Of a DNA stretch of 64,000 nucleotides, positions 29,717 to 31,727 are shown piece by piece (position 1 is the stretch's first letter; every line of letters starts with the position of its first letter). The notes under the pieces were generated by a model. It was not told the origin of the DNA and ran no database searches. It worked only from the letters and a program-made list of their open reading frames with translations. The DNA comes from Patescibacteria group bacterium (GTDB taxonomy: Bacteria > Patescibacteriota > Patescibacteriia > JAQUQO01): the NCBI GenBank assembly GCA_028716045.1, contig JAQUQO010000001.1, forward strand, positions 320,942-384,941, in the 5' to 3' direction. The position numbers were made by a program, and so were the translations under genes.

Positions 29717-31727
29717 ACCACCAATTTTTACTGAACCGGTTAGACCCTAACTTAAGGAATATTCTGCTAACGGTGATGGCGGAAAACATACTGACAATAA
29801 CACCAACGCCAAGAGTAATGGCAAATCCTTTAACAATACTAGTGGTAAAGGTCGCCAAAATAACACAAGATATGAGGGTGGTGACGTTGCTATCGCGTAT
29901 TGAAGGCCAGGCGCGCTTAAATCCATCGTCAATGGCTGACCCCAAGGATTTCCCGCTTTTTAATTCTTCTTTCAATCTTTCAAAAATAAGCACGTTAGCG
30001 TCAATGGCCATGCCAATAGAAAGAATAAAACCCGCAATACCGGAAAGTGTTAATGTCACGGGAATAATTTTAAACAGGGCTAAAACAATGGCGCCGTAAA
30101 CAATCAATGCCAAAGAAGACCAAAATCCCGGCAAGCGATAGTAAATTATCATAAAAATCATAACCAAAAGAATACCAATAAGCCCCGCCGTCAAACTATC
30201 ATTGACCGATTGGTTGCCAAGCGTGGCTCCGACTGTCTGTTGGCTGACTAATTTAATGGGTACCGGCAAAGCGCCCGCGTTCAAACGGCGAGAAAGAGTT
30301 TTGGCCTCGTCAATGTTAAAATCACCGGTAATAACCGCTTTGCCATCGCGGATAGGTTCATTAACCCTTGGGATACTTAGGGCTTCGCCGTCCAAAAAAA
30401 TTGCCACCGGCTCTCCGACATTTCTTTCAGTAATTTCTCCAAAAAGCTTTTTACCCTCATCATTGAATTCCAACCCGACTTCCGCCGCGCCGGTATTTTG
30501 GTCAAACTGAACCATTGATTTTTTTAATTGAACACCGGTCAAACCGGTAACTTTCCAGGGGTCTTGCGGTCCCAAGATATCCTGCTCGGTTTGCTTTTTT
30601 AAAAAGATATTTTTTACCTGATATTCAACCAGCGACCGCTCGTCGGATTTATAAATAAGATGATAGCCAAAATCCGTTTCTACGGGTTCAGAAATTTCCC
30701 CCGTTGCCATAGCAAAAACTTTTTCCTCAAACGGTGGGACCATTTTGCCTTTCCCAAAAAATCCCAGCCCGCCGCCTTCAGAAGAAGTACCCGTGTCATT
30801 GGAATACGTTTTAGCAAGAACGGCAAAATTCTCCGGCGTGACCTGGCTCTTAACCTCGTTAATCTTCGCCAAGGCCTCGTCTTTGGTTAATTCCGTGGGA
30901 CAATTGGACGCGCCCTTATAGCAAATCAAGATATGGCTGGCTTCCACTTCTTTTTCTTCTTCAATACGGTCAATGGGTTTAATAATGTAATAACCGCTGG
31001 TCATCTCAACCAATTTATTATAAACCGCGTTCAGCTCGGCTTTTTTAGCCGCTTCAAAAATCGGTGAGAACAAACGCTCACTCACCATCATCGGTAAAAC
31101 CGTACCCTCGGTTTTTTCTTCAATTAATTTATCAAAACCGGCTTCATCGGCTCCAAGCGCTTGAATTAAAACCTCTTCCGCCTTAATTTTTACTTCCTTA
31201 TTATTTTTTTCCAATTGACTTTTTTCTTCGGCGGTGAGCTCGCGCACATCTTTGTTTTGCTCCTTAAATTCCAGCATCGGAGTTTCGCCTATCATTTCAA
31301 TGGCTTTGTGAACATCTTTGATTCCGGCTAATTCCACCACTACTCGCCAGCTGTCTCCGGTTTTGGTGGTCTGAATCACCGGCTCGGAAACGCCGAAAGC
31401 GTTAACGCGCCTTTCAATAACATCGCGCGCGCCGGCGACAGCGTCGCTTCTTTCGGCTGACGGGATATTTGCCATATCCGCTTCATAAACCAAGTGCGTA
31501 CCGCCGAGTAAATCCAAACCTAAACGAAAAGGCAGATTATAAAAATGGGGAACATCTATTTTTAGACTATCCTCAACCCAATCGGCTCCTTTATCCCAAT
31601 ACATCGGCGCATCCAACGCCACGGCCAAAATAGCTAAAACTAAAATAAAAAATACCGCCCATCTGACTTTCCCCCGCGGGGTGGGCTTGAAAATCACGCT
31701 AAACAGTTTGGTAAAGAATTTCTTCAT
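29691..31727 (-). CDS. secD: protein translocase subunit SecD with a parvulin (PpiC)-type PPIase domain inserted in the periplasmic P1 region
   Basis: SecD core [17 protein letters not shown]...VELAGIKD...MLEF and C-terminal TM bundle ...[17 protein letters not shown]. Residues ~255-362 read EASHILI...[60 protein letters not shown], the rotamase signature. Confidence 0.88.
   Translation of the reverse strand: [678 protein letters not shown]

Follow-up and report, generated by a model that had tools for sequence, protein, structure and literature searches.

A parvulin-type domain and a second parvulin-like module in the P1 region of SecD from a Patescibacteria group bacterium

The secD gene and its insert

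The stretch of DNA analysed here (the window) is a 64,000-nucleotide segment of contig JAQUQO010000001.1 from a Patescibacteria group bacterium, and its secD gene encodes a SecD protein with a PPIase (peptidyl-prolyl isomerase) domain of the parvulin type inside its extracytoplasmic P1 domain. The features of secD, of its insert and of the adjoining secF are listed in Table 1. The 678-residue open reading frame (ORF) matches the NCBIfam equivalog model for secD, TIGR01129, with 390.3 bits against a cut-off of 244.4 over residues 69–658, and three Pfam families characteristic of SecD lie along it with scores above their cut-offs: SecD_1st (PF21760, E=1.5e-17), SecDF_P1_head (PF22599, profile positions 19–114 of 114, E=1.7e-26) and SecD_SecF_C (PF02355, residues 492–655, E=1.9e-15). 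The best structural matches of the whole protein are the SecDF structures 5xan, 3aqp and 5yhf. The ORF encodes a genuine SecD, an accessory subunit of the Sec translocon that is driven by protons, and proteins identical to it are present at NCBI as MDD5043274.1 and MDD5490516.1 (Patescibacteria metagenome-assembled genome, contig of 927,681 bp). From the position of the first transmembrane segment (TM1) and the topology of SecDF structures (PMC5974789), everything up to about residue 500 lies outside the cytoplasm.

Table 1. Positions of secD, its domains, its insert and secF in the window
Feature	Residues	Position	Strand	Basis
secD coding sequence	678 aa	29691..31727	-	ORF, stop codon included; TIGR01129 match
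TM1 of SecD	17-39	31611..31679	-	AlphaFold helix H17-39; hydrophobic sequence
P1-base N-terminal segment, last strand MLEFKEQ	99-158	31254..31433	-	PF21760; aligns with T. thermophilus SecDF 33-118
Whole lineage-specific insert	159-393 (235 aa)	30549..31253	-	Gap between PF21760 and PF22599
Outer parvulin-like module, core (α1 to β4)	165-255	30963..31235	-	hhalign; AlphaFold pLDDT 85-95; conservation
Inner canonical parvulin PPIase domain	256-365	30633..30962	-	Rotamase_3; PF00639; Pin1 BLASTP; Foldseek
Terminal β1-like strand closing the outer module	366-378	30594..30632	-	hhalign; AlphaFold; covariation
P1 head subdomain	394-489	30261..30548	-	PF22599; aligns with T. thermophilus SecDF from residue 142 on
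TM2-TM6 membrane domain of SecD	505-662	29742..30215	-	Pfam SecD_SecF_C; AlphaFold helices H505-662
secF, partner subunit	303 aa	28805..29716	-	TIGR00966, 267 bits vs cut-off 160; 26-nt overlap with the end of secD

Comparison with Thermus thermophilus SecDF (3AQP) by phmmer locates the additional material. Residues 67–175 of the window protein align with T. thermophilus residues 33–136, weakly beyond the strand VLEFR/MLEFK, and residues 377–660 align with residues 142–424, such that about 24 residues at the junction of P1 base and P1 head in T. thermophilus are matched by 235 residues (159–393) here. The first-pass annotation had described a complete rotamase domain at 30642–30965 on the minus strand, which translates to residues 255–362 and ends in GYHLIYKSD, and had set it between two segments of the P1 base. 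A complete domain is present and the insert does lie in the extracytoplasmic P1 domain, but the downstream flank (VAIFLDG...ITGDF) is the P1 head rather than a second part of the base, and the inserted material amounts to 235 rather than about 108 residues and holds a further parvulin module. The location had been called periplasmic, and this holds insofar as it is extracytoplasmic, the better term for bacteria of the Candidate Phyla Radiation (CPR).

The inner of the two modules is matched by Pfam Rotamase_3 (PF13616) at residues 247–361 with 102 bits (cut-off 22.5; E=3.8e-29), and by Rotamase (PF00639) at residues 265–360 over profile positions 1–95 of 97 (E=1.3e-24). These matches, together with those to NCBIfam models, place the presence of a parvulin domain in SecD well beyond chance, and with SecD families flanking Rotamase_3 on both sides the hidden Markov models (HMMs) bear out the annotation's central claim, that a complete parvulin-type PPIase domain lies within P1 of a real SecD; structural matches to PrsA and Pin1, conserved residues and recurrence in independent assemblies agree with it. 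In BLASTP the domain is 37% identical to human Pin1 (E=4e-19; the Pin1 sequence used has a self-consistent residue numbering). Among the key residues H265, C269, C276, S309, D311, L321, M329, F333 and H356, this alignment equates H265 with Pin1 H59, L321 with L122, M329 with M130, F333 with F134 and H356 with H157. The pair S309-x-D311 corresponds to S111-x-C113 of Pin1, with a one-residue gap near D311 that BLAST places ambiguously; Asp occupies the C113 position in many bacterial parvulins. The best sequence matches of the domain are the PrsA PPIase domains 6vj6 (E=1.2e-19) and 6xd8 (E=1.4e-18), and Foldseek superimposes it on the PrsA PPIase domains 2jzv and 6xd8 with target TM-scores of 0.85–0.87 and root-mean-square deviations of 2.1–3.0 Å.

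Conservation was assessed in the best 120 homologues, which are 53–73% identical to the window protein and have an average column identity of 56%. H265, C269, C276, F301, G319, F324, F333, G354 and H356 are invariant in this set, L321 and M329 are each kept in 119 of the 120, and position 311 is Asp or Glu in 109. That the catalytic and pocket residues are invariant or nearly so points to selection on catalysis, and judging from these residues the inner module most likely works as a peptidyl-prolyl isomerase.

The two invariant cysteines, C269 (30921–30923) and C276 (30900–30902), form part of a motif HILICY.GA..C in the β1–α1 loop that is present in all 120 homologues. In three related loci, L009, L010 and L016 (L-numbers denote related loci and P-numbers related proteins), both cysteines are absent together. 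This joint loss suggests a C269–C276 disulfide, which probably staples the β1–α1 loop beside the active site.

Topology of the insert

The sequences on either side of the inner domain resemble a second parvulin divided in two. Residues ~176–255 have the parvulin-like consensus DF..LAKEYSED....GGDLGF....G.V...LIET..GYNIIK among the 120 homologues, in which the N-terminal His strand (β1) is missing and GYN or GYY stands in place of GYH; the GGDLG loop is deleted in the window clade. Profile comparison by hhalign matches this outer module to the inner canonical domain with a probability of 98.9% (E=1.4e-17). The strand at residues 366–378, on the far side of the inner domain, has the family consensus EY.VSRILIKTK and resembles a parvulin β1 without its His. 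Some relatives still have a His in this strand (KASHIFI in L004, HHILF in L002 and RHIIA in L005). Across the family the two His positions of the outer module are occupied by Asn, Tyr or Gly (247) and by Arg, Gln or His (373), and in the window protein by Y247 and N373. With its catalytic histidines lost, the outer module is parvulin-like and is not to be called a PPIase. An assignment of the N-terminal part of the insert to a chaperone domain of the PrsA/SurA type was considered and rejected, as it has no SurA_N or PrsA domain match and profile comparison identifies it as a second parvulin.

Two further lines of evidence bear on how the parts fit together. An AlphaFold2 model computed from the 120-homologue alignment has a full-model predicted local distance difference test score (pLDDT) of 88.4, and DSSP finds in it two unbroken 24-residue strands, 245–268 and 354–377. 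These strands are expected to form one long antiparallel ribbon, in which residues 245–255 (outer β4) would pair with 366–377 (the terminal β1), and residues 258–268 (inner β1, with H265) would pair with 354–365 (inner β4, with H356). Covariation within the insert was calculated as mutual information with average product correction (effective number of sequences 88). The strongest covarying pair is 247–373, the sites at which the outer module once had its two His residues; 11 of the 40 top pairs fall on i+j=620–624, and the anti-diagonal mean peaks at i+j=622–623. Profile comparison, AlphaFold secondary structure and covariation together show the outer module to be a parvulin in circularly permuted order, with β1 as its last element, and the canonical parvulin to be nested in the β4–β1 hairpin of this permuted module.

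A simpler arrangement occurs in L078 and 27 more proteins, which are SecDs of ~560–630 residues with a single parvulin at the same site and in permuted order (single-type SecDs). Their consensus is ...DFA.LAKEYSEDPGS...GGDLGF...TQFGYHIIKKEE-loop-EVR.RHILI.TK, and since the PF00639 match begins at profile position 10, β1 is absent from the N-terminal end. AlphaFold predicts a hairpin of β4 (254–264), a loop and β1 (276–285) in a domain with pLDDT ~90. D209 and H281 are invariant (28 of 28) and H256 is present in 27 of the 28. By hhalign the single-type core matches the inner core of the tandem insert with E=8e-37 and the outer core with E=2e-29 (E=2.3e-29 for the outer module against the single-type domain), and its β1 matches both β1 strands of the tandem form, the comparison with the strand at 366–378 giving E=1.6e-9. 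The best 50 Foldseek matches of the single-type model are to SecDF and resistance-nodulation-division (RND) transporters only. Two scenarios fit these comparisons: either a permuted unit was duplicated in tandem, or a copy was inserted into its hairpin, and in both the host copy would then have degenerated.

Distribution, gene neighbourhood and related systems

The first-pass annotation had named a chimera within secD as grounds for discarding its claim, and the data speak strongly against one. All of the best 120 homologues, from NCBI, JGI, ENA and Logan assemblies, share the combination of Rotamase and SecD Pfam families, and this recurrence in independent assemblies excludes an assembly chimera. 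The same architecture is found in at least 17 GTDB species representatives, the GTDB matches listed, for the most part ordinary parvulins, containing at least 17 full-length tandem-insert loci along with the single-type locus L078. That a parvulin gene was joined to secD by mis-assembly or by mis-calling of the gene is favoured by nothing except the origin of the sequence in a metagenome-assembled genome, and it is opposed by the uninterrupted ORF, by SecD homology on both flanks of the insert, by a GC content that runs smoothly at 0.41–0.46 across secD with no break in composition, and by covariation that connects residues across the module boundaries. We regard the probability of such an artefact as negligible.

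Parvulin-SecD occurs in several CPR lineages. Among the record labels of the homologues are Kuenen-, Falkow-, Magasanik-, Uhr- and Buchananbacteria, Parcubacteria and Patescibacteria groups, as well as Peregrinibacteria (687 residues) and Peribacteria (808 residues). There are also fused SecDF variants of 1005–1057 residues with the same parvulin insert, and a variant without the membrane domain (P0357–P0384, ~465–475 residues) in which one or more parvulins are combined with SecDF_P1_head; some of these are labelled Peregrinibacteria or Patescibacteria. A 604-residue protein, P0200 (L081:1757–3571), likewise contains parvulins and SecDF_P1_head without a membrane domain and has a lipoprotein-type signal; its gene adjoins a gene for a trypsin-like protease and not secF. 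From their domain content P0200 and P0357–P0384 look like a detached form of the SecD parvulin module.

Some parvulin-SecD records have labels from outside the CPR (Gammaproteobacteria, Binatia and Lysobacteraceae/Xanthomonadaceae). For L078 such a label is not accepted: it has 30% GC, its 77–85% identical homologues are named Patescibacteria or Falkowbacteria, and it looks like a mislabelled bin. Tandem-insert loci labelled 'Candidatus Binatia' or 'uncultured Gammaproteobacteria' are L002, L005, L006 and L013–L017, among which L002 (DATJFD010000021.1, labelled Binatia) has 65% GC. Either these are mislabelled bins, or the architecture reaches past the CPR.

The first-pass annotation had suggested that the domain may make up for periplasmic chaperones missing from a reduced genome, which is conjecture. 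The window, taken from a genome of ~0.93 Mb, has no other parvulin ORF in its 64 kb, and none of 18 related loci has a further parvulin gene within ~6 kb of secD. Stand-alone parvulin proteins are encoded in other CPR bacteria, and a general lack of such chaperones in the CPR can therefore not be assumed.

Upstream of secD there are just 82 nt, with no leader ORF and no candidate arrest peptide. The gene for SecA (35384–38077) is on the minus strand like secD and ~3.6 kb upstream of it, with small genes between the two that include two NUDIX-like ORFs and one GIY-YIG-like ORF, and murB and a Mur ligase gene lie further upstream than secA. Directly downstream of secDF is a 118-residue ORF, and after it come two genes (25229–28268, minus strand): a 470-residue ORF with no Pfam match whose counterpart in L082 is DUF8128, and a 544-residue ORF for a TrwB/VirD4-like ATPase that contains a treble-clef zinc finger. 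The order secD-secF-DUF8128-ATPase is kept in L082. An Rfam scan of the whole window at the gathering threshold gives no match, and thus no tRNA, rRNA or riboswitch by that scan.

Among known systems the closest in overall plan is canonical SecD/SecDF (T. thermophilus 3AQP/5YHF and D. radiodurans 5XAN/5XAP). It shares TM1, P1 base, P1 head and TM2–6 with the window protein, as well as the adjacent secF and the membrane Asp that is D340 in T. thermophilus and D576 here. The differences are the parvulin modules, 235 residues in place of ~24, and an Asn in SecF of the window clade where T. thermophilus has the essential D637.

The parvulin part has its nearest relatives elsewhere. CPR bacteria are not known to have an outer membrane, and PrsA is for this reason the closest functional analogue. 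The inner domain has its best matches, by sequence as well as by structure, among PrsA PPIase domains, and both proteins are extracytoplasmic, membrane-tethered and placed to act on Sec substrates. PrsA, however, is a separate dimeric lipoprotein in which an N/C-terminal chaperone domain hosts the parvulin, whereas the window parvulin is anchored by SecD itself and is nested in a permuted parvulin. Neither SurA_N nor any other chaperone-domain Pfam family was found in the window SecD, nor were the N- and C-terminal domains of PrsA with HMMs for these, and the NCBIfam PrsA and SurA models match the parvulin part only (48–74 bits against cut-offs of 343–394). By domain content the window SecD falls outside the PrsA, SurA and PpiD families, although its mode of working may be similar.

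SurA shares with the window protein a pair of parvulins of which one is degenerate and one looks active, and Foldseek matches it (1m5y) with E ~1e-7. It differs in being soluble, with an N/C-terminal chaperone core and parvulins arranged in series, the first of them inactive, whereas in SecD here they are nested and permuted. SurA binds the holotranslocon, and AlphaFold sets its two parvulin domains on the P1 head of SecDF (PMC9987972); this predicted contact is non-covalent, and the corresponding connection in the window SecD is covalent. PpiD-YfgM, which docks on SecYEG (PMC9643414), is similar in being a membrane-tethered parvulin-fold protein at the translocon exit. PpiD is a separate SecYEG-associated protein with a single parvulin, which is generally known to be catalytically inactive. 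In Mycoplasma pneumoniae, Sec-SecDF carries a dome of PrsA-like proteins (Mdp/Mpn444 and Mpn436), one of them with PPIase activity (bioRxiv 10.1101/2025.04.25.650208, 10.1101/2024.09.05.611430). There too a genome-reduced bacterium couples Sec-SecDF to extracellular PrsA-like PPIase proteins, but the dome consists of large, separate lipoproteins, is non-covalent and is described as unique to Mycoplasma, in contrast to the covalent insertion into SecD in the CPR.

Possible function and its alternatives

Precursor proteins crosslink to a cavity in the P1 head, and the head swings between a membrane-facing and an upright form, coupled to proton flow (PMC5974789). We propose that the insert is a tethered foldase or chaperone of the PrsA/SurA kind carried on the P1 head of the proton-driven SecD, a proposal that we consider probable, if far from assured, on the strength of sequence and of analogy with the systems above, its action on substrates and its coupling to the P1 head included. 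The SecD P1 domain has acquired the two-module parvulin insert at the junction of its base and its mobile head. With the head reported to capture the chain that emerges from SecYEG and to swing under proton flow (PMC5974789), parvulins attached at its root would move along with it and encounter secreted chains as these leave the channel. The inner parvulin would catalyse prolyl isomerisation on the emerging chains, the outer module would most likely serve as a scaffold or substrate-binding surface, and the fused parvulins together may keep unfolded segments bound and in this way favour folding and release, like tethered PrsA, SurA or PpiD. A folding enzyme is probably, on this evidence, built directly into the secretion machine.

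Several observations weigh against this proposal. The parvulin domains of PpiD and the P1 domain of SurA are catalytically inactive, and a parvulin fold is thus no guarantee of catalysis. The window protein has the loop G-G-G-L-G in place of the consensus G-G-D-L-G in its inner domain (G320, where 104 of the 120 homologues have Asp), and the full AlphaFold2 model has a predicted template modelling score (pTM) of just 0.52. There is also a departure in the proton relay. In T. thermophilus SecDF, D340 in TM4 (esAspIV) and D637 in TM10 (esAspX) are reported to be essential (PMC5974789). SecD D576, which aligns with D340, is invariant in 120 of 120 homologues, and the TM11 Arg of SecF (T. thermophilus R671) is retained (IARSV), but the D637 position of SecF is occupied by Asn211 (AAT at 29084–29086, minus strand; motif GFSVNNTIIVFDR). 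The same Asn is present in the two closest relatives from other samples (L082:2156–3079 and L083:5048–5932), and all of 15 more distant SecFs encoded beside parvulin-SecD genes keep Asp. As far as these sequences can tell, the Asn is a real feature of the clade, and proton coupling may be altered and possibly non-canonical.

The modules could instead form an ATP-independent holdase or docking platform that enlarges the binding surface of the P1 head, in the manner of the PpiD parvulin domain or SurA domain P1, with isomerase chemistry irrelevant. The outer module is in keeping with this, having lost both histidines and yet being retained at high model confidence, and in the window clade it has shed its GGDLG loop too. 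In parvulin proteins, chaperone function can often be separated from PPIase activity. AlphaFold puts the parvulin domains of SurA against the P1 head (PMC9987972). What a holdase would not call for is the maintenance of the inner catalytic and pocket set across 120 sequences at 53–73% identity to the window protein, or the retention of D209, H256 and H281 by single-type SecDs despite the permutation. Both are the pattern expected from purifying selection on catalysis, and a pure holdase appears to us unlikely, while still worth serious consideration. The insert might, on the other hand, be mainly structural or regulatory and not act on substrates, modulating the swing of the P1 head or docking SecD to a further component of the envelope, for instance YidC, SecYEG, the pilus machinery, or the cell wall or S-layer. 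Its position exactly at the base-head junction, the hinge region, would suit such a role; the length of this site varies elsewhere (E. coli SecD has ~185 residues more than T. thermophilus before the aligned head), and the Asp-to-Asn change in SecF hints at altered energetics. A role of this kind explains neither why catalytic and proline-pocket residues are so strictly conserved nor why there are detached proteins that combine P1 and parvulins without a membrane domain, and we judge it improbable.

A more far-reaching version of the foldase proposal would have CPR SecDF as a one-piece translocation and folding machine, in which each proton-driven swing of P1 hands the chain to an active parvulin, prolyl isomerisation and folding at the exit add to directional pulling, and a free foldase of the PrsA type is replaced. 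The insert would also be the first natural parvulin to be described with a circular permutation, and the series from a single permuted parvulin through the nested tandem to a degenerate host copy would be consistent with permutation by duplication. Taken jointly these claims are speculative, and we put them forward tentatively.

SecD and parvulin are each well known as components. Databases already annotate the domains through precomputed Pfam matches, and one fragment is named 'peptidylprolyl isomerase'; within the full-text literature, as distinct from subscription literature, no paper on a SecD-parvulin fusion or on a circularly permuted parvulin was found. How foldases outside the cytoplasm receive secreted proteins from the Sec channel is under active study and unsettled, and current evidence for contacts between SecDF and chaperones is indirect, consisting of low-resolution electron microscopy and AlphaFold in the case of SurA, of crosslinks in that of PpiD and, for the Mycoplasma dome, of an in-cell map. 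A covalent parvulin fusion in the mobile P1 head is 'Rosetta-stone' evidence on this point, and its conservation in several CPR lineages, together with the detached P1-plus-parvulin protein, suggests that parvulin foldases make up a functional unit with the P1 head. Because the fusion is one polypeptide, its geometry and coupling could be addressed by structure determination and by point mutation. For the parvulin fold it is a clean case of domain nesting along with circular permutation, and the arrangement is a pointer to how bacteria with small genomes consolidate the proteostasis of their envelope.

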